Shown here in pieces: positions 1 through 5,594 of a stretch of 5,594 nucleotides of DNA. A model generated the notes under the pieces. That model was not told where the DNA came from. It saw nothing but the letters and a program-made list of their open reading frames with translations, and did no database searches. Source of the DNA: a virus (taxonomy: Duplodnaviria; Heunggongvirae; Uroviricota; Caudoviricetes); IMG/VR virus record IMGVR_UViG_2663762627_000005, positions 1 to 5,594 of that record; one strand, given 5' to 3'. Within the stretch, counting starts at the first letter, position 1. Every line of letters starts with the position of its first letter. The position numbers and the translations under genes were made by a program.

Positions 1-441
1 GATTACGAAATTATGCCGCCTTTTCGCCAGTTGTCGCGCCGCACGGTGCTGCTCACACCAAAAGAATCTACCTGAACGATCAAGCGCACGGTTTTTTATC
101 ATCTCAGGCTGGTTTTTAATCCCCATCAGCTCCGGTGCTAGTGCAGCGGCCAGTTCTGCACCGTTCTGCTGCATAAAATCATGCAGTCGGTTACGGATGC
201 TGATGCGTTGCACCTCCTCATGTGAGCGGATATAGCGACCGGCGGCCTGATTAATCTCCCATTTTTTTATATCGATGAGCTCACGCAGCATCTGTAAGCA
301 GCGGGAACCCGTTGCATTGTCATCTAGCAATAATTCCTGATATTCCTGCATTGCGGCGGCCAGTTCGGTTTTACGGTTCAGCCACACGGTTTTGTTCGTC
401 TGACAGGCGTCACAGGCCTGCTGTAAGGTCAGAGTGGTCAC
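1..441 (-). CDS. psu: Psu-like polarity suppression / capsid decoration protein, 5' part only (147 codons; 3' end lies beyond the left edge)
   Basis: Reverse-strand frame open from GTG at 441-439 to position 1 with no stop. SD-like AGGAGAG sits 7 nt upstream (on the minus strand). Translation (VTTLTLQQACDACQTNKTVWLNRKTELAAAMQEYQELL...KWEINQAAGRYIRSHEEVQRISIRNRLHDFMQQNGAELAAALAPELMG) closely matches P4 Psu as I recall it. Third gene of the sid-delta-psu order. Not in the supplied ORF track because it is edge-truncated and GTG-initiated. Confidence 0.8.
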   Translation of the reverse strand, partial: MTTLTLQQACDACQTNKTVWLNRKTELAAAMQEYQELLLDDNATGSRCLQMLRELIDIKKWEINQAAGRYIRSHEEVQRISIRNRLHDFMQQNGAELAAALAPELMGIKNQPEMIKNRALDRSGRFFWCEQHRAARQLAKRRHNFVI

Positions 442-457
442 GGGTTGTCTCTCCTGA

Positions 458-703
458 TTAATGGCAGAACGGCGAGCTGTAGCAGCCTTTTACCCGACGG
501 GGTGCCACGGGGGCTGTCGGCACCGGCGCGGGTTTCTCATCGACGACCGGCGAACGTATCACTTCAAAGATGGACTCATGCGTTTTAAATGTCGCCGAGC
601 AGTGCACATTCTGGCACTGCAGGTAACTCTCTTTGACGCTGTCAGACATATAGCGGCTGGTGCGAACGTGTGCCGCCGTGCGGCAGAAAGGGCAGCGCAT
701 CAT
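458..703 (-). CDS. delta: Ogr/Delta-family zinc-finger late transcription activator (81 aa)
   Basis: ORF MMRCPFCRTAAHVRTSRYMSDSVKESYLQCQNVHCSATF... carries the Cys4 pattern C-x2-C-x22-C-x4-C and strong similarity to P2 Ogr (MFHCPLCQHAAHARTSRYI...QCQNVNCSATF). Its ATG overlaps the stop of the upstream gene (ATGA, translational coupling). Confidence 0.88.
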   Translation of the reverse strand: MMRCPFCRTAAHVRTSRYMSDSVKESYLQCQNVHCSATFKTHESIFEVIRSPVVDEKPAPVPTAPVAPRRVKGCYSSPFCH

Positions 704-1437
704 GACAATAACCCCCGAGCCTTCAGGTCAGCTTCACGTTCCTGCATTTTTTCCTGCCAGACTTTTCGCTGAACGGGAGTGGCCGCAACGTCATGCTCCA
801 TATGCGGCAGCGTGGAGGCCGACAGTCCTGTTTTAAACAGCACCGGTTCATCGGTCAGACGGATATCGCAGCCTTTCACCGCCTGCTCAAGTCGGTCTTT
901 CACCTGCTGCATAACGGCCTGTTCTGGCTGGATATAGCCCTGATGCCCGGTGGTATTGGCAAGCGGGTTATTAAGAACCAGTATGTTGAGTTTCATTGCC
1001 CTGACCAGCGCGCTACAGGTATCACGCAGGGCAACATCGAGCTCATGCTCTGCATACTGGCTGAGGACGCTGTAATGTGCCTGACGGTACGCTCTGGCCG
1101 TCCGGTCACAGACTCCCTTAAGGCTGTCCAGCTCAAAAGACAGAACCTCAGCCATATTGTCACATTCCTGCGCCAGTTCCCGCCGTGCCACGCGCGCCAG
1201 ATGGCGTTGTTTCAGCTCGTCGGTAACGACAGCACCACCGGCACGAAAGGCGGCGCGCCATGCGCCGGAATCATTGCCGTTTTCCTGCTCCAGTTCATTT
1301 TTTTGCGTTTGCACCTGGCTGATGGCCGTCGTGGTTTCATCCATACGGCTGGCATTGGCGAGATGCGCCGAGCGGGCAGTCTCAAGGCGTTCCATTGCAG
1401 GTTTAAGGTAGTCGGGAATAACAGCGGTCTGAGTCAT
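700..1437 (-). CDS. sid: Sid-like protein (capsid size determination / external scaffold), 245 aa; assignment by synteny and size
   Basis: First gene downstream of the Delta-type promoter box, followed by delta and psu as in P4. The ATG at 1437-1435 is preceded by GAGGAGA with a 6-nt spacer; the longer track ORF (to 1503) has no SD and would start inside the promoter. 245 aa is close to P4 Sid. Sequence identity to Sid not verified. Confidence 0.6.
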   Translation of the reverse strand: MTQTAVIPDYLKPAMERLETARSAHLANASRMDETTTAISQVQTQKNELEQENGNDSGAWRAAFRAGGAVVTDELKQRHLARVARRELAQECDNMAEVLSFELDSLKGVCDRTARAYRQAHYSVLSQYAEHELDVALRDTCSALVRAMKLNILVLNNPLANTTGHQGYIQPEQAVMQQVKDRLEQAVKGCDIRLTDEPVLFKTGLSASTLPHMEHDVAATPVQRKVWQEKMQEREADLKARGLLS

Positions 1438-1469
1438 GTCGGGTCTCCTCTTCGTTTCAATCTGAGGAG

Positions 1470-1528
1470 ATTCTGCCGCGCCAGACACAACAACACGATT
1501 CATTGGCGTTGTGGCAAAAATGACACAA
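1470..1528 (-). promoter_or_regulatory. Psid-like late promoter: TGT-N12-ACA dyad (1511-1528) plus candidate -10 CAGAAT (1475-1470, minus strand)
   Basis: Exact TGTggcaaaaatgacACA at 1511-1528. The dyad centre is about 55-57 bp upstream of the predicted start site and about 80 bp upstream of the sid ATG, the geometry of Ogr/Delta-activated P2/P4 late promoters. Confidence 0.6.
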
Positions 1529-1613
1529 ACAGACCTTAAAACCCGGCTGGCCAGAGAAAGGTCTCAGGAAACCCTTACTCACTGTTTGTTTTTTTACTAA
1601 TAACTATTCACTA

Positions 1614-1708
1614 CTGTTCACCTTAAGAAAAAAGATAAGTAATACAGTTAATTAAAGGGTGAACAGTTGAAGGTCTGACTGTTCACCGTCTGTTCACCAC
1701 TGTTCACC
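1614..1708. repeat. Cluster of five CTGTTCACC repeats (P4 type I iteron core TGTTCACC); crr-like alpha-binding region
   Basis: Direct copies at 1614-1622, 1679-1687, 1690-1698 and 1700-1708 (the last three phased at 11 and 10 bp), plus an inverted copy GGTGAACAG at 1658-1666. The octamer TGTTCACC is the alpha-protein binding iteron of P4 ori and crr. Confidence 0.7.
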
Positions 1709-1790
1709 CTTCTGTTTTTCTCTGCCGATACCTTTAGACTTTATTTCGATTAAAAATCAAAAATATATAACTAAAAGAAATAGAAATTGC

Positions 1791-1844
1791 TGCATTGTAA
1801 TGCAGTGATTTGCATCTGTTTGCCAGCGTTTGCCTTTGTTTGCC
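1791..1844 (+). promoter_or_regulatory. Candidate operator/PLL-region elements: perfect palindrome TGCATTGTAATGCA and three GTTTGCC direct repeats phased at exactly 10 bp
   Basis: Palindrome at 1791-1804. GTTTGCC at 1818-1824, 1828-1834 and 1838-1844. Lies 130-180 bp upstream of the vis/alpA start, with an AT-rich tract (1740-1790) just upstream. Confidence 0.4.
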
Positions 1845-1973
1845 ATAGCGAAAAGTCAATGTTTGTTTCCACGAAAATCTCACATGACCTGAGGAAAAAT
1901 ATAGACATAATAAGGAGCTACCCGAAGCCGGACGGACACGACCGGCACCGTATGGACTTTATGAGGTAGCCCG

Positions 1974-2240
1974 ATGCACACCGCTTTTTCTTCCCCGTCT
2001 TCTGCCCCTGCCGCGCCGCTGATGCCGGTCTCTGACGCCGTTCATGAGCGTTTTATTCGTCTGCCTGAAGTGATGCATTTATGCGGCCTGTCTCGTTCGA
2101 CCATTTATGACCTCATCAGCCGGGAAGCTTTCCCGAAGCAAATCTCCCTCGGCGGTAAAAACGTGGCGTGGGCGCAGTCTGAAATCACCGCATGGATGGC
2201 GGATCGCATTGCCGAACGTAACCGGGGTTATGACGCATGA
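1974..2240 (+). CDS. vis: AlpA/Vis-family small DNA-binding regulator (88 aa), MerR-like HTH
   Basis: ATG at 1974 with GAGG 7 nt upstream. The protein contains [50 protein letters not shown], characteristic of prophage AlpA/Vis/excisionase-like regulators. Same size (88 aa) and position as P4 vis (orf88) as I recall. Confidence 0.85.
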
Positions 2241-2788
2241 TGATGACCGTTCAGCAAACAGCCCCTTTTTCTGGCTTGCTTCTTTTCATCGTTTCCAGGT
2301 ATAGTTTTCCCGCTGCCGCAAAATCGGCAGCCGGGCGTAGGAACCCGAGTTACTTATTGGCGACACCAGACGCGCCATGCGTCTTTTTTTACGTCGTTGC
2401 TCAGGCACACCCATTTTCCGGGCTGTGGTGCTTATACCTTAGCCCCTGTCAGATAATGGTGGTCCGGGCGGGGCAGCCTTCGGGCTGGCCGGTTTCCAAT
2501 AAGGCCGGTATTCCTACCCCCGTTCGGGTCACCACCCATGAGCGTAGGAACTCCGGTGGTGGCAATTACCGCTACTTATTGGAGGTTGCCGCTATGGCTA
2601 CGACCCTCACCCTGCCACACCCGCAGTTTGTCTTTGTGTTTGCCGCCGTTCGTCGCGCAGACCGTAAACCCCGTATCTGTATGCTTCGCACCGTTGCCGG
2701 TGATGAACACGCTGCACGTCTTTCCCTCGTTCGCGATTATGTCCTCTCGTTCGCTGGCCGTCTGCCGGTTGCGGAGGTGTGCGCATGA
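2237..2788 (+). CDS. eta: Eta-like long ORF (183 aa) whose terminal part is kil; starts with three consecutive ATG codons and reads through seqA, the CI-like RNA and seqC
   Basis: About 119 codons stay open across a region that is clearly an RNA regulatory locus, in frame with kil. The start overlaps the vis stop (ATGA) and is followed by ATGATG. This matches the P4 description of eta as a nested ORF beginning upstream of PLE with three possible start codons. Whether it is translated is untested. Confidence 0.45.
2276..2305 (+). promoter_or_regulatory. Sigma70-type promoter, PLE-like: -35 TTGCTT (2276-2281), 18-bp spacer, -10 TATAGT (2300-2305)
   Basis: Good hexamers with correct spacing. 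Placed just upstream of seqA and the CI-like RNA and just inside the eta ORF, as expected for the constitutive early promoter of a P4-type left operon. Confidence 0.55.
2335..2361 (+). promoter_or_regulatory. seqA-like target of the immunity RNA (GTAGGAA ... CTTATTGG)
   Basis: GCGTAGGAACccgagttaCTTATTGG is complementary in two blocks to the seqB segment of the downstream RNA (CCAATAAG ... TTCCTAC at 2496-2517). Confidence 0.65.
2368..2390 (+). terminator. Intrinsic-terminator-like hairpin (AGACGC / gccat loop / GCGTCT) followed by a T7 tract
   Basis: 6-bp stem at 2368-2373 and 2379-2384 with a T run at 2384-2390, immediately downstream of seqA in the leader. Orientation-specific: there is no U-tract on the other strand. 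Confidence 0.4.
2455..2537 (+). ncRNA. cI: CI-like immunity RNA (about 80 nt) carrying seqB; boundaries approximate
   Basis: A terminal helix can form between GGUGGUCCGGGCGGGG (2458-2473) and CCCCCGUUCGGGUCACCACC (2517-2536). Internal hairpin CAGCC-UUCG-GGCUG (2474-2488). The seqB segment CCAATAAGgccggtaTTCCTAC (2496-2517) is complementary to both seqA and seqC. P4 CI RNA is a processed leader RNA of about 79 nt. Confidence 0.6.
2541..2585 (+). promoter_or_regulatory. seqC-like target of the immunity RNA, overlapping the kil Shine-Dalgarno
   Basis: AGCGTAGGAAC (2541-2551) and CTTATTGG (2575-2582) repeat the seqA blocks. The GGAGG SD of kil is at 2581-2585, so CI/seqC pairing would occlude the kil ribosome-binding site. 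Confidence 0.6.
2594..2788 (+). CDS. kil: Kil-like small protein (64 aa), first translated gene downstream of the PLE-like promoter
   Basis: ATG at 2594 with GGAGG 8 nt upstream. 64 codons ([64 protein letters not shown]). P4 kil is 65 aa at the same position. Function inferred from position only. Confidence 0.6.
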
Positions 2789-3012
2789 GACACACCACCA
2801 TTACTGCCCGTGACCTCGAATGCCTTGAACATATGCGCAACGTCGGTCAGCTCGTCAGCGAACTGATGCAGGTGCAGGACTGTGCCACTGTTCGCCGTGA
2901 CCCGGCGCAGCAGTTACAGCTCACCTCCGTGATTTACCTTATGACCGCCCAGCTCGACGGCATGGTCGAACGCTGCAATCAGCACTGGCTGACCGGGGAG
3001 GACAACGTATGA
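2785..3012 (+). CDS. Hypothetical small protein (75 aa from ATG 2785; the track's GTG 2779 start gives 77 aa)
   Basis: GGAGG at 2773-2777 is 7 nt upstream of ATG 2785. The ATG overlaps the kil stop (ATGA). No recognisable motif. Occupies the slot where P4 carries small left-operon genes such as eps. Confidence 0.6.
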
Positions 3013-3329
3013 AACAGCCATTACCGCCCGTATTACGCGCCGCGCTCTATCGCCGTGCAGTGGCCTGTGCCTGGCTGACCCTGTGCGAACGCCAGCACCG
3101 TTACCCGCGCCTCACCCTTGACGCGCTGGAAAGCGCCATTGCTGCCGAGCTGGAGGGCTTCTACCTGCGCCAGCATGGAGAGGAAAAAGGTCGCCAGATT
3201 GCCTGTGCACTGCTCGAAGATTTAATGGAAGCCGGACCACTGAAAGCTGCCCCGTCGCTGTCCTTCCTCGGGCTCGCGGTGATGGATGAACTTTGCGCCC
3301 GCCATATCACCGCACCGGTACTGCACTGA
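3009..3329 (+). CDS. Hypothetical protein (106 aa), translationally coupled to the upstream ORF
   Basis: GGGGAGG at 2995-3001 is 7 nt upstream of ATG 3009. The ATG overlaps the upstream stop (ATGA). The ORF ends 14 nt before the primase start. No recognisable motif. Confidence 0.65.
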
Positions 3330-3343
3330 GGGAGAAAATAACA

Positions 3344-5440
3344 ATGAAAATGAACGTAACGGAAACCGTAAAACAGGCGTGCGGTCACTGGCCGCGTATT
3401 CTCCCGGCGCTGGGTGTGAAGGTGATTAAAAACCGGCATCAGGCCTGTCCGGTGTGCGGCGGCTCTGACCGCTTTCGCTTTGACGATAAAGAGGGGCGCG
3501 GGACGTGGTACTGCAATCAGTGCGGCGCGGGTGACGGGCTTAAGCTGGTCGAAAAGGTGTTCGGTGTAAATCCGTCTGAGGCCGCCCGGAAGGTGAACGC
3601 CGTCACCGGTAATCTGTCGCCGGTTGCCCCGGAAGCGATTGCGGCCGCAGAAGCCGGAACCGATGCCGACCTCCAGGCGGCGGCCGCGCTGGCCGTCAGG
3701 CTCATGGAGAAAACCCGCCCGGCCACCGGCAACGCCTACCTCACCCGCAAGGGTTTCCCCGACCGGGAATGTCTGATGCTCACAGCCATACATAAAACCG
3801 GCGGCGTGACGTTCCGCGCCGGTGATGTGGTTGTCCCGCTGTATGACGATACCGGGGCGCTGGTTAACGTTCAGCTTATTAATGCTGATGGTCTCAAACG
3901 CACCCTGAAAGGCGGTCAGGTCAAAGGGGCATGTCATATCATCGAGGGGCAGAAACAGCCCGGAAAACGCCTGTGGATTGCGGAGGGTTATGCGACCGCG
4001 CTCACCGTGCATCAACTGACCGGCGAAACCGTCATGGTGGCGCTGTCCTCCGTGAACCTCCTTTCTCTGGCGAGCCTTGCCCGTCAGAAGTCCCCGGCCT
4101 GTCAGATTGTCCTCGCCGCCGACCGTGACCTTAACGGCGACGGCCAGAACAAAGCCGCAGCGGCCGCAGGAGCCTGCGAGGGCATTGTTGCCCTGCCACC
4201 GGTGTTCGGTGACTGGAATGATGCGTTTATAGAAAAAGGTGAGGAAGCCACGCGGAAAGCCATTCATAACGCCATCCGGCCACCGGCACAAAGTCCGTTC
4301 GACACCATGAGCGAGGCGGAATTTACCGCCATGAGCGCCAGCGACAAGGCGATGCGGGTGCATGAGCATTACGGCGAAGCGCTGGCTGTGGACGCGAACG
4401 GCCAGCTTCTGTCCCGCTATGAAAACGGCATCTGGAAAAATATCCCTGCCGCCACTTTTTCACGAAATGTTGCTGATTTATTCCGGCGCGTGCGTGCCCC
4501 GTTCTCGTCGGGGAGAATCACCTCAGTGGTGGAGACGCTGAAGCTGATTATTCCTCAGCAGGAGGCACCGGCGCGCCGTCTGATTGGTTTTCGCAACGGG
4601 GTACTTGATACCCAAAGCGGCCTGTTCAGCCCGCACAGTAAATCACACTGGCTGCGCACGCTGTGCGACGTGGATTTTACCCCGCCGGTGGAAGGGGAAA
4701 CGCTGGAGACCCACGCGCCAAACTTCTGGCGCTGGCTCGACCGTGCCGCCGGTGGCAGACCGGAAAAACGCGACGTGATACTTGCCGCGCTGTTTATGGT
4801 GCTGGCGAACCGCTACGACTGGCAGCTCTTTCTCGAAGTCACCGGTCCCGGCGGAAGCGGTAAAAGTATTCTCGCCGAAATCGCGACCCTGCTCGCCGGA
4901 GAGGATAACGCCACGTCAGCCGATATCGACACACTGGAAGACCCGCGCAAGCGCGCATCCCTGACTGGTTTCTCGCTAATCCGTCTGCCTGACCAGGAAA
5001 AATGGAGCGGTGACGGGGCAGGACTCAAAGCCATCACCGGCGGCGATGCGGTCTCAGTTGACCCGAAATACCAGAACCCGTACTCAACACATATTCCGGC
5101 GGTGATTCTGGCCGTGAACAATAACCCGATGCGCTTCACTGACCGCAGCGGCGGTGTGTCACGCCGCCGGGTGATTATTCATTTCCCGGAGCAGATTGCC
5201 CCGGAGGAACGCGACCCGCAGCTCAGGGATAAAATTGCGCGCGAGCTGGCCGTTATCGTGCGCCAGCTTATGCAGAAATTCAGCGACCCGATGGCAGCGC
5301 GCACTCTGCTCCAGTCGCAGCAGAACTCCGATGAAGCGCTCAGCATCAAGCGTGATGCTGACCCGACGTTTGATTTTTGTGGCTATCTGGAAATGCTGCC
5401 GCAGACCAACGGGATGTTGGTAATGGTGCCAACTTACTGA
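3344..5440 (+). CDS. alpha: P4 alpha-type primase-helicase, C-terminus apparently replaced by IS1-derived codons (native codons end near 5418)
   Basis: Start ATG 3344 (MKMNVTETV...) with GAGGGAG upstream; the track's earlier ATG 3293 lies inside the preceding gene. Zinc-ribbon CPVCGG...WYCNQCG, primase EGYATA motif, TOPRIM-like AADRDLNGDG, and Walker A GPGGSGKS (about 4844-4867). The last 7 codons and the stop (5420-5440) lie inside the IS1 terminal inverted repeat. 699 aa versus about 777 aa for P4 alpha. Confidence 0.88.
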   Translation: MKMNVTETVKQACGHWPRILPALGVKVIKNRHQACPVCGGSDRFRFDDKEGRGTWYCNQCGAGDGLKLVEKVFGVNPSEAARKVNAVTGNLSPVAPEAIAAAEAGTDADLQAAAALAVRLMEKTRPATGNAYLTRKGFPDRECLMLTAIHKTGGVTFRAGDVVVPLYDDTGALVNVQLINADGLKRTLKGGQVKGACHIIEGQKQPGKRLWIAEGYATALTVHQLTGETVMVALSSVNLLSLASLARQKSPACQIVLAADRDLNGDGQNKAAAAAGACEGIVALPPVFGDWNDAFIEKGEEATRKAIHNAIRPPAQSPFDTMSEAEFTAMSASDKAMRVHEHYGEALAVDANGQLLSRYENGIWKNIPAATFSRNVADLFRRVRAPFSSGRITSVVETLKLIIPQQEAPARRLIGFRNGVLDTQSGLFSPHSKSHWLRTLCDVDFTPPVEGETLETHAPNFWRWLDRAAGGRPEKRDVILAALFMVLANRYDWQLFLEVTGPGGSGKSILAEIATLLAGEDNATSADIDTLEDPRKRASLTGFSLIRLPDQEKWSGDGAGLKAITGGDAVSVDPKYQNPYSTHIPAVILAVNNNPMRFTDRSGGVSRRRVIIHFPEQIAPEERDPQLRDKIARELAVIVRQLMQKFSDPMAARTLLQSQQNSDEALSIKRDADPTFDFCGYLEMLPQTNGMLVMVPTY

Positions 5441-5594
5441 TTTAGTGTATCATGGTGTTTTTGAGGTGCTCCCGTGGCTTCCATCTCCATCAGTTGTCCC
5501 TCCTGCTCAGCTACTGAAGGCGTGGTGCGTAACGGTAAAAGTACTGCCGGACATCAGCGCTATCTCTGCTCTCACTGCCGTAAAACATGGCAAC
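5419..5594 (+). mobile_element. IS1 insertion sequence, left end (terminal inverted repeat GGTAATGGTGCCAACTTACTGAT) and start of insA; continues beyond the window
   Basis: 5419-5441 matches the IS1 terminal inverted repeat apart from a few variant positions, followed by the characteristic TTTAGTGTAT...GGTGTTTTTGAGGTGCTCC leader and insA. Confidence 0.9.
5474..5594 (+). CDS. insA: IS1 InsA (transposition repressor / N-terminal transposase part), 5' portion only
   Basis: GTG start at 5474. Translation (V/M)[39 protein letters not shown] matches the InsA N-terminus (zinc-finger CPSC...CSHC). ORF runs off the right edge. Confidence 0.9.

Follow-up and report, generated by a model that had tools for sequence, protein, structure and literature searches.

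A Probable P4-type RNA Immunity Region with Recognition Sequences Unlike Those of P4 in an Escherichia coli Satellite Prophage

Genes at the Locus

The window, a 5,594-nucleotide stretch of DNA (IMG/VR record IMGVR_UViG_2663762627_000005, positions 1 to 5,594), encodes the gene set of a P4-like satellite as judged by Pfam, with matches to Psu, Ogr_Delta, Phage_AlpA, DUF5375 and the Zn_Ribbon_Prim/Toprim/D5_N domains of a primase-helicase. Neither Pfam nor NCBIfam matches the ORF that takes the place of sid, and the ori iterons lie at 1613–1711 in inverted arrangement. In a 99.9% identical copy of the element in E. coli PSS-16, the integrase gene adjoins ssrA.

Upstream of the region of interest is a vis/alpA homologue of 88 amino acids (1974–2240, plus strand, as are all features below; Pfam Phage_AlpA, E = 3e-20), which agrees in position and length with ORF88 of P4 and heads the late (PLL-type) transcript. 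Its stop codon overlaps the start of the next gene in an ATGA at 2237–2240. This next gene is an eta-like long ORF of 183 amino acids (2237–2788; predicted by PGAP, with Pfam Phage_ASH matching residues 22–118), and it overlies the promoter, seqA, t1, the CI-type RNA and seqC described below. It ends, in the same frame, as a kil homologue of 64 amino acids (2581–2788 including its Shine-Dalgarno sequence, GGAGG at 2581–2585; ATG at 2594). The kil product is 84% identical to the C-terminal 65 amino acids of the P4 ORF annotated as cI and matches the NCBIfam family phage_ICD_like (E = 3e-22). The C/G ratio reaches its maximum, 1.73, at 2600–2699, within kil.

Of 50 homologous loci, 47 keep the frame upstream of the kil ATG open from one end of the RNA region to the other, and for nearly every length class the distance from leader to ATG is divisible by 3. 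P4 has the same nested arrangement of eta and kil, for which the coupling of eta, kil and alpA and the termination logic have been described (PMC10111431). On the open frame and this precedent we rejected the idea that the 183-residue CDS is an artefact of annotation. In the RefSeq records inspected the RNAs are unannotated and only the 183-residue CDS, labelled "Icd-like" or "ash family," is shown; each E. coli record inspected likewise carries a single PGAP CDS there. Conservation of the Phage_ASH family is probably driven at least in part by the underlying RNAs, and as long as these stay unannotated, genome scans will go on rediscovering the locus.

Promoter, Leader RNA and Terminator within eta

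Alignment with P4 places a PLE-type constitutive promoter at 2276–2305, composed of a -35 element TTGCTT (2276–2281), an 18-nt spacer and a -10 element TATAGT (2300–2305). The latter is aligned with, and identical to, the feature annotated as "-10 consensus" in the P4 record X02534. The -35 element is weak, which is why a simple promoter scan does not call this promoter. Transcription is predicted to start at about 2312, the position at which the match to the Rfam isrK model (RF01394) also begins. That match spans 2312–2389, is full-length, terminator included, and scores 75.9 bits, the gathering score being 50. The related model c4-a1b1 (RF03163) scores 50.1 bits at 2299–2351, above its threshold of 46.7.

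The leader RNA so defined (2312–2389) is of the IsrK type and comprises, by Rfam match and folding, a hairpin at 2312–2331, a second hairpin at 2332–2347 that carries half-site a1 in its loop, half-site b1 and a homologue of the intrinsic terminator t1. The terminator (2368–2390) was picked up by a terminator scan as a 7-bp stem within 2368–2384 followed by a U-tract at 2385–2390, directly 3' of seqA and upstream of the CI-type RNA. Its stem and T-run are near-identical to those of P4, the single difference lying in the loop, and among related loci one stem pair alternates between G-C and C-G (21 versus 20 loci). Equilibrium folds revealed no antiterminator that CI binding could remove, the t1 hairpin having a probability of at least 0.97 with seqA either blocked or free. 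The constrained ensemble folds, being insensitive to the seqA block, speak neither for nor against a simple antiterminator model of CI-enhanced termination at t1.

A CI-type Antisense RNA of the C4 Family

Downstream of t1, the covariance model of the Rfam C4 family (RF01695) matches the plus strand at 2452–2539 over all of its 87 positions (1–87), with 83.4 bits and E = 5.8e-16. This is well above the gathering score of 45, and the covariance-model check proposed in the first-pass annotation is thereby answered in favor of a CI-type RNA. The same annotation had described a structured segment of about 80 nt with a long terminal helix and a UUCG-capped hairpin, and folding bears this out. The core (2457–2534) forms a 17-bp terminal helix around a 5-bp hairpin capped by C(UUCG)G (2474–2487) and a second hairpin (2488–2509), with a minimum free energy of -46.6 kcal/mol (z = -3.85); none of 200 shuffled sequences folds as well, and the opposite strand of the core folds far worse (z = -1.55). 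In both the minimum free energy and the centroid fold of 2457–2534, half-site b' occupies the loop of the second hairpin and half-site a' the 3' junction, so that both are single-stranded.

Immediately 3' of the terminal helix is the sequence CC(C)A (2535–2538), of which CC is invariant across loci and is followed by A or CA. By analogy, this ending recalls the 3' CCA found on RNase P substrates of the hairpin type. The CI RNA of P4 is a substrate of RNase P, as is the c4 RNA of P1/P7 (PMC5499578), and IsrK and C4 correspond to the seqA and CI RNAs of P4 (PMC3632133, PMC4825925). Two further Rfam matches in the window, to let-7 and GlsR17, are weak and below their gathering scores, the former being explained by the inverted ori iterons.

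Three Blocks of Bipartite Complementarity

The structured RNA is flanked by two sites with which it is complementary. seqA (2337–2360) consists of a1, GTAGGAA (2337–2343), 9 nt of spacer and b1, CTTATTGG (2353–2360). seqB (2496–2517), within the CI-type RNA, presents b', CCAATAAG (2496–2503, in the loop of hairpin 2), a 7-nt spacer and a', TTCCTAC (2511–2517, in the single-stranded junction). seqC (2544–2582) repeats the upstream half-sites as a2, GTAGGAA (2544–2550), and b2, CTTATTGG (2575–2582), separated by 24 nt. On the same strand, seqB is Watson-Crick complementary to seqA at 15 of 15 nucleotides and equally to seqC. Each half-site has exactly three copies in the window, all of them in these blocks, and the bipartite pattern occurs three times there versus not at all in any of 200 dinucleotide-preserving shuffles. 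The three blocks are thus present as first described, their spacers measuring 9, 7 and 24 nt. Of their coordinates, those of seqB were exact, whereas seqA and seqC, earlier given as 2335–2361 and 2541–2582, required correction by 2–3 nt.

The last two bases of b2 are the first two G's of the GGAGG of kil, 8 nt before the ATG at 2594. This overlap is general: in all 47 loci that match a GGAG-ATG pattern, the window included, b2 ends in the GG of GGAG, 6–9 nt before the ATG. The spacer of seqC holds a small hairpin (2554–2571) that the terminator scan flags as terminator-like. As a candidate homologue of P4 t4 this hairpin is paired in 65.9% of cells (one 4-bp register), and neither t4 nor timm could be placed with confidence at the locus. 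Details of t1, t4, timm and RNA processing in P4 were reportedly given by Briani et al. in 2000 and Forti et al. in 1999.

Covariation among Related Loci

We collected 45 related loci from Escherichia, Pantoea, Erwinia, Rahnella, Serratia, Citrobacter and others, leaving out two hits (L014 and L027) that fit the 21-nt search pattern by chance. Across this set the seqA:seqB interaction is paired in 99.1–99.4% of cells and the seqB:seqC interaction in 98.3–100%, with both sides changed at 12 of the 15 pairs in each case; register-slid controls are paired in only 33–48%, and none of 500 shuffles reaches the observed covariation score. Loss of this complementarity among relatives had been named beforehand as an observation that would speak against the immunity reading, and the opposite is seen, with 98–100% of cells paired. 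In a separate test for exact matches, triple complementarity is perfect in 33 of 57 pattern matches, which represent 19 half-site combinations, and the remaining matches mostly contain terminal G.U pairs or single mismatches. The helices of the CI-type RNA itself are paired in 99.6–100% of cells, hairpin 1 having both sides changed at 4 of its 5 pairs, and conserved G.U pairs identify the plus strand as that of the RNA.

Comparison with P4 and Immunity Specificity

BLAST alignment with the immunity region of P4 (561-nt query) gives 78.7% identity over 86% of the query. Here too the earlier suggestion to align the two was productive, as the scaffold is conserved base by base and the half-sites differ. 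The likeness extends to the order and spacing of all parts, including the leader hairpins, a1-n9-b1, t1, the CI scaffold and a2-n24-b2, to the overlap with the Shine-Dalgarno sequence, Kil (84% identical) and the ATGA overlap of alpA and eta, and to the flanking psu/delta/sid and primase genes. The P4 region is matched by the same three Rfam models, C4 with 74.9 bits and c4-a1b1 with 44.1, just short of the gathering score of 46.7. P4 differs in having about 45 additional nucleotides between t1 and CI and in orf151, which is absent here, and where P4 has epsilon the window has an unrelated gene. The ORF at 2785–3012, considered as an epsilon homologue, was rejected (no similarity, E = 18; no Pfam or NCBIfam match).

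The difference that bears on recognition lies in the half-sites. At all three sites, a is GTGAGAA in P4 and GTAGGAA here, and b is TTCACAGG in P4 and CTTATTGG here. Thus 2 of 7 positions in a and 4 of 8 in b differ, with matched changes at all three sites. If P4 specificity is taken as identity of both half-sites (GTGAGAA and TTCACAGG), the window, with GTAGGAA and CTTATTGG, does not have it. The predicted duplexes of the cognate RNA are -22.8 kcal/mol with seqA and -29.1 kcal/mol with seqC, versus -12.1 and -17.2 kcal/mol with the CI of P4; for the half-sites alone, the predicted values are -7.7 and -7.6 kcal/mol for cognate pairs versus -1.4 and -2.3 kcal/mol for cross pairs with P4. The a and b half-sites determine specificity, and since these are unlike those of P4 and have changed coordinately at three sites, the element is predicted from its sequence to be heteroimmune to P4. 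The first-pass annotation had also proposed a diverged specificity, reasoning from the unequal spacers of seqA and seqC. The divergence stands and is located in the half-site sequences; the spacing is no sign of it because P4 has the identical 9 and 24 nt. Determinants of immunity specificity in the retronphage phiR73 (GenBank M64113), which is P4-like, were reportedly studied in this same region by Sabbattini et al. in 1996 (Virology 216:389).

Taken with the gene context, the Rfam matches, the base-by-base alignment and the 45-locus covariation, these data make it very probable that the locus is the RNA immunity region of a P4-like E. coli satellite prophage that works as P4 does and uses recognition sequences unlike those of P4. 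The P4-type architecture originally proposed, a CI-like RNA between seqA and seqC, is therefore upheld, although that description lacked several functionally essential elements, namely the promoter, t1, the eta ORF above them and the way seqC runs into the kil Shine-Dalgarno sequence. The type of switch is already well understood, and for a P4-type RNA immunity locus this one is a textbook case.

Proposed Mechanism and Alternatives

The analysis demonstrates the sequence elements, the RNA fold, the homology to P4, the three-way covariation, the Shine-Dalgarno overlap and the conserved open eta frame; how the RNA is processed, how transcription ends, the immunity itself and the insensitivity of the late transcript are taken over here, by analogy, from work on P4. 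The constitutive PLE-type promoter within the eta ORF would start transcription at about 2312, and the transcript would contain, in order, seqA, t1, the structured segment of about 80 nt and seqC. The structured segment would be excised as a stable CI RNA, its 5' end being cut in P4 by RNase P. Processing of the P4 type, with RNase P and PNPase, would leave about 79 nt. This RNA would expose two short single-stranded blocks, b' in the loop of the hairpin and a' in the junction beside it, which could pair in trans with a1/b1 of seqA and a2/b2 of seqC whenever the same promoter yields a new transcript. At seqC, such pairing would mask the first bases of the kil Shine-Dalgarno sequence; with that site covered, the toxic Icd-like Kil would go untranslated, and the untranslated C-rich RNA downstream would lead to termination ahead of the replication genes (primase alpha). 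Pairing at seqA, beside t1, would feed back on CI synthesis. On the late transcript, begun at the promoter ahead of alpA, ribosomes arriving by coupling from that gene would translate eta across seqA, CI and seqC, which would make this transcript insensitive to CI.

The nearest alternative is that only the P1/P7 c4 type of control operates, the RNA doing no more than shut off translation of the Icd-like gene at a2/b2, the remainder falling to Rho-dependent polarity, and seqA and t1 having no direct part in termination. The best Rfam match is after all to the C4 family, built around P1/P7 c4, the downstream gene has an Icd-like domain as in P1, b2 overlaps the Shine-Dalgarno sequence, the 5' portion of kil is rich in C and poor in G, and blocking seqA is without effect on t1 in the equilibrium folds. 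Against this, the complementarity of seqA with seqB is kept as strictly as that of seqC (99% of cells) and seqA always stands directly before a conserved intrinsic terminator; this strictness and constant placement argue that seqA has a function of its own. Moreover, P4, to which the locus aligns base by base, has been reported to have CI-dependent termination involving seqA (PMC4825925, PMC10111431). We regard control of the c4 type alone as improbable. The leader RNA (2312–2389) might instead act as an IsrK-like small RNA in trans, activating downstream expression by pairing with the read-through mRNA or by titrating CI. Its full-length isrK match would suit this role, as would the report that short IsrK, a structural homologue of the P4 seqA RNA, activates translation of the long isoform (PMC4825925). 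Against it, the downstream genes are of the P4 type (kil, DUF5375, primase) and not the orf45-anrP of Gifsy-1, and the covarying complementarity of the leader is with seqB instead of a downstream helix; a decoy role of the short RNA would be compatible with P4-type immunity and would not replace it. We consider this role more doubtful still.

That the region might be protein-coding only, with the complementary blocks incidental to the 183-residue "Icd-like" or "Ash family" CDS, scarcely deserves credence. The PGAP CDS, the Phage_ASH match and the frame open in 47 of 50 loci are what such a view would expect, but three-way compensatory change, seen in each interaction at 12 of 15 pairs and in the UUCG hairpin at 4 of 5, attests to constraint at the level of RNA for which a protein gives no account, and the covariance models score far above threshold. 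Coding and RNA functions coexist, since the open frame is that of eta, whose translation belongs to the RNA switch (PMC10111431).

Other Systems of the Same Family

The c4/icd-ant system of P1/P7 belongs to the same RNA family and likewise sets a'/b' against upstream a1/b1 and downstream a2/b2 over an Icd-like ribosome-binding site. It differs in what is regulated, which here is the satellite replication genes, the window containing no ant gene. In P1, the regulated output of the c4 system is the antirepressor Ant. With IsrK of Salmonella Gifsy-1 the shared element is the leader (2312–2389), which fits the isrK model at full length; IsrK differs in that it reportedly activates orf45-anrP translation in trans (PMC4825925), genes that are absent here, and a processed RNA downstream of it, STnc1160, is complementary to IsrK (PMC4825925). 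Nucleotide similarity of 68–81% over the CI part is found with phiKO2 and PY54 (N15-like linear plasmid-prophages) and with Stx-converting lambdoid phages, reaching into the leader in phiKO2. The CI/C4-like RNAs of the N15-like and Stx phages also adjoin genes annotated as icd-like, ant or repressor, although their host elements and regulated genes are other ones.

Half-site Combinations and Spread of the Allele

The 45 loci contain 6 types of a' and 15 types of b' in 27 combinations, with 22 four-gamete quartets. Perhaps, though we hold it somewhat unlikely, the two half-sites reassort independently of each other, as "digits" of an address code written in RNA. Each half-site change is present at three separate sites, and the order a1-b1...b'-a'...a2-b2 bars the swap of a digit by one crossover. 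Concerted conversion among the three sites and stepwise compensatory mutation are candidate origins of the combinations. Should each digit be needed and no combination cross-react with another, the result would be a combinatorial system of mutual exclusion among P4-like satellites. We found no description of this reassortment pattern in the literature searched, a body that most primary P4 papers lay outside.

The allele GTAGGAA with CTTATTGG is widespread, occurring also in Pantoea, Erwinia and Chimaeribacter, and would define which satellites exclude one another. The region has counterparts of 95% identity or more in 213 E. coli chromosome records, and the one inspected has the same half-sites. 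A related region is present in 1,713 E. coli genomes. The primase gene of the satellite in the window is interrupted by an IS1 insertion, so immunity may now serve only to silence kil, with no working replication switch to govern. P4-like prophages of Salmonella Typhi have IsrK-like elements that are reported to be required in TraDIS (PMC3632133).

A Bipartite Complementarity within a P4-type RNA Locus

Pattern searching of the window places the upstream target seqA (GTAGGAA-n9-CTTATTGG) at 2337-2360 and the downstream target seqC (GTAGGAA-n24-CTTATTGG) at 2544-2582, both on the plus strand, with the reverse complement of their half-sites, seqB (CCAATAAG-n7-TTCCTAC), at 2496-2517. The three blocks and their shared bipartite complementarity, proposed in the first-pass annotation from the sequence alone, are indeed present; the spacer lengths given there were correct, and on their left sides seqA and seqC had been drawn 2-3 nt too wide. 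The bipartite pattern has no match in 200 dinucleotide-preserving shuffles, and across the 5.6-kb window each half-site is present three times and no more.

Folding of the seqB segment reproduces the structured element suggested earlier, with a predicted 17-bp terminal helix around seqB (2457-2473 with 2518-2534), a UUCG-capped 5-bp hairpin (2474-2487) and a second hairpin (2488-2509) whose loop is half-site b' (CCAATAAG), half-site a' (TTCCTAC) being single-stranded in the junction directly 3' of this second hairpin. The minimum free energy of -46.6 kcal/mol (z = -3.85) is equaled by none of 200 shuffles, and the opposite strand gives z = -1.55. The annotation had suggested a search with a covariance model of the CI RNA, should one exist; the Rfam C4 antisense RNA family (RF01695) matches 2452-2539 over its full length with 83.4 bits, accompanied by isrK (RF01394; 2312-2389, 75.9 bits) and c4-a1b1 (RF03163; 2299-2351, 50.1 bits), all on the plus strand and above their gathering scores. 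The same three models match the immunity region of P4, c4-a1b1 scoring 44.1 there, just below threshold. The IsrK and C4 families correspond to the seqA and CI RNA of the P4 literature (PMC3632133; PMC4825925).

By BLAST, P4 is 78.7% identical across 86% of a 561-nt query, and in pairwise alignment the leader hairpins, CI scaffold, seqC spacer and downstream ORF all align with the window, the terminator after seqA differing by a single loop base. The P4-type immunity architecture is thus borne out by the Rfam matches, the alignment with P4, the gene context and comparative covariation. Judged by sequence, the locus passes every test of membership in P4-type CI RNA immunity and in the C4, isrK and c4-a1b1 families, and the sole test that it fails is that of sharing the specificity of P4.

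Complementarity Is Maintained by Compensatory Changes

A leader-hairpin search, using one genome per species, returned 53 loci, of which L014 and L027 were matches by chance and were set aside. The others belong to Escherichia-related genera, Pantoea, Erwinia, Rahnella, Serratia, Citrobacter, Kosakonia, Yersinia and further genera. In an exact-match test, seqA, seqB and seqC are perfectly complementary in 33 of 57 pattern matches, covering 19 half-site combinations, and most of the others have one terminal G.U pair or mismatch or are register artefacts of the regular expression. When 45 sequences were aligned from transcript start to the kil ATG, the share of paired cells was 99.1-99.4% for seqA:seqB and 98.3-100% for seqB:seqC, with changes on both sides at 12 of 15 pairs for either duplex. 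Sliding the partner by 1-3 columns lowers pairing to 33-48%, and the observed covariation score was reached by 0 of 500 shuffles. Within the CI scaffold, 4 of 5 pairs of the UUCG-capped hairpin covary as well, and invariant G.U pairs of the scaffold mark the plus strand as the RNA strand. Relatives therefore clearly maintain the complementarity through compensatory substitution, contrary to the loss that the first-pass annotation had named as grounds for abandoning its reading.

The Serratia marcescens locus L006:314-592 has a seqA (TTGGCAT / CTTCAAGG) mismatched to its own seqB (CCATTGAG / CTGCAAG), which its seqC does match; the kil ORF there is shortened to 38 codons, and 27 nt before its ATG the frame is interrupted by a stop codon. 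This locus looks chimeric and is probably a recombinant or decaying copy. Among phage records, the CI part (2453-2613) finds nucleotide matches of 68-81% in N15-like linear plasmid-prophages (phiKO2, PY54), Klebsiella phages and many Stx-converting lambdoid phages, adjoining ant, icd-like or repressor-annotated genes; in these records the matching segment is covered by protein or terminator annotations, or by none, and no RNA feature is listed.

Half-site Alleles and Specificity

Compared with P4, 2 of 7 positions are changed in half-site a (GTAGGAA versus GTGAGAA) and 4 of 8 in half-site b (CTTATTGG versus TTCACAGG), the changes being the same in seqA and seqC and complementary in seqB. Predicted duplex energies of the window CI RNA with its own seqA and seqC are -22.8 and -29.1 kcal/mol, compared with -12.1 and -17.2 kcal/mol for the P4 CI RNA on the same targets. 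With the half-sites alone the cognate values of -7.7 and -7.6 fall to -1.4 and -2.3 when the window target meets P4 CI, what cross-pairing is left being due to the conserved spacer rather than to the half-sites; from this loss the element is predicted to be heteroimmune to P4. A diverged specificity had been proposed from the unequal spacers of seqA and seqC, an argument that is invalid because P4 has the same 9 versus 24 spacing; the conclusion stands on the half-sites instead. Sabbattini et al. in 1996 are said to have already established specificity variation among P4-like elements, for phiR73.

The window allele is not rare. At 95% identity or more, 213 E. coli chromosome records match 2299-2600, the one record inspected (97.4% identity) having the same half-sites, and the pair is also found in loci of Pantoea, Erwinia and Chimaeribacter. 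In other E. coli copies GTAGGAA is accompanied by TTCACAGG or TCTAACGG, or else TTTGCAG by CTTATTGG. Across the Enterobacterales the a and b half-sites reassort, a property of the family and not of the window specifically (45 loci of alignment A2; L057-L061): among the 45 loci, 6 types of a' and 15 of b' occur in 27 different combinations, and there are 22 four-gamete quartets. Each half-site change must be installed at three separate sites, and because the order is a1-b1 ... b'-a' ... a2-b2, a single crossover cannot swap one half-site at all three. No description of this reassortment was found in the searchable literature, which covers few primary P4 papers.

Promoter, Terminator and the Nested kil and eta Genes

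A PLE-type promoter has its -10 TATAGT at 2300-2305, aligned with and identical to the annotated -10 in P4 record X02534, and a weak -35 TTGCTT 18 nt upstream; the isrK match starts at 2312, ∼7 nt downstream of the -10. Directly after seqA lies an intrinsic terminator (stem 2368-2384, T-run 2385-2390) that is conserved in all loci and that, by its position, is homologous to P4 t1. The last two bases of the second seqC half are the GG opening a GGAGG Shine-Dalgarno sequence, 8 nt before ATG 2594, an overlap kept in every locus with a GGAG-ATG pattern match. The 64-aa product from this ATG has an Icd-like domain and shares 84% identity with the last 65 residues of the P4 ORF annotated cI, which identifies the gene by sequence as a kil homologue.

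Followed upstream, the kil frame runs without a stop across seqC, CI, t1, seqA and the promoter as far as ATG 2237, which overlaps the alpA stop codon (ATGA). RefSeq annotates only this 183-aa CDS ("Icd-like" or "ash family") and no RNAs, and a CDS lying over the RNA region could be taken for a spurious annotation. This is ruled out by the frame being open in 47 of 50 loci and by the published nesting of eta and kil; nearly all length classes of the interval between the leader start and the ATG (279, 282, 300, 318, 327) are also divisible by 3. The CDS is the eta homologue. [quoted passage not shown] 1999). The Pfam family Phage_ASH (PF10554) aligns with the portion of the protein overlying the RNAs, and its conservation may therefore be at least partly RNA-driven.

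A Proposed Course of Regulation

By analogy with P4, transcription from PLE would yield a leader with seqA and t1, and read-through RNAs would include the structured segment, to be cut out as a stable CI RNA. P4 CI RNA is a hairpin-type RNase P substrate (PMC5499578); here an invariant CC, then A or CA, directly follows the terminal helix (2535-2538), and this 3' CC(C)A would be consistent with such a substrate. The a' and b' of CI, complementary to and covarying with their targets, would pair with seqA and seqC of new transcripts; on seqC this would block the kil ribosome-binding site that it overlaps, and the untranslated RNA downstream would then be terminated. The C/G ratio peaks at 1.73 at 2600-2699, lending weak support to a Rho-utilisation region like P4 timm. 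Pairing at seqA, beside t1, would restrict the synthesis of CI itself; equilibrium folds do not account for this effect on termination, because the t1 hairpin forms with a probability of at least 0.97 either way. Late-promoter transcripts, translated through the whole region as eta, would escape control.

When the whole read-through transcript (2312-2610) is folded to its minimum free energy, seqA pairs in cis with seqB and breaks the CI scaffold. On read-through RNAs such pairing could therefore compete with the maturation of CI.

Gene Context and an IS1 Insertion

The surrounding genes are those of a P4-like satellite: psu (1-441), an Ogr/Delta zinc-finger gene (458-703) and an ORF in the sid position, all on the minus strand, alpA/vis (1974-2240) upstream of the immunity region, and a DUF5375 gene and then a primase-helicase after it. 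The 99.9%-identical copy in E. coli PSS-16 adjoins ssrA and has an integrase. Where P4 carries epsilon, the helper derepression gene, the window has a 75-aa ORF (2785-3012) for which no similarity to epsilon is detectable and which matches nothing in Pfam or NCBIfam; P4 orf151 is without a counterpart in the window. Iterons of the ori type at 1604-1711 and 1809-1845 (four direct copies of ACTGTTCACC, the inverted GGTGAACAGT, and TTTGCC-type repeats) occupy the positions of the P4 ori type 1 and type 2 repeats; a sub-threshold let-7 Rfam match at 1643-1724 is spurious, being due to inverted iteron copies.

An IS1 end (GGTAATGGTGCCAACTTACTGATTTAGTG...) occupies 5419-5594, including the start of insA (5474-5593) with the IS1 zinc-binding domain. 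From 5419 it interrupts the primase-helicase after ∼691 of 777 codons, and since about the last 86 are lost, the satellite in the window is, on this sequence, probably replication-defective; the gene is intact in PSS-16. The immunity region is 100% identical in the two copies, and would still be needed for silencing the Icd-like Kil despite IS1. IsrK-like elements of P4-like prophages are reported to be required in Salmonella Typhi (PMC3632133), consistent with a continued need to silence Kil.
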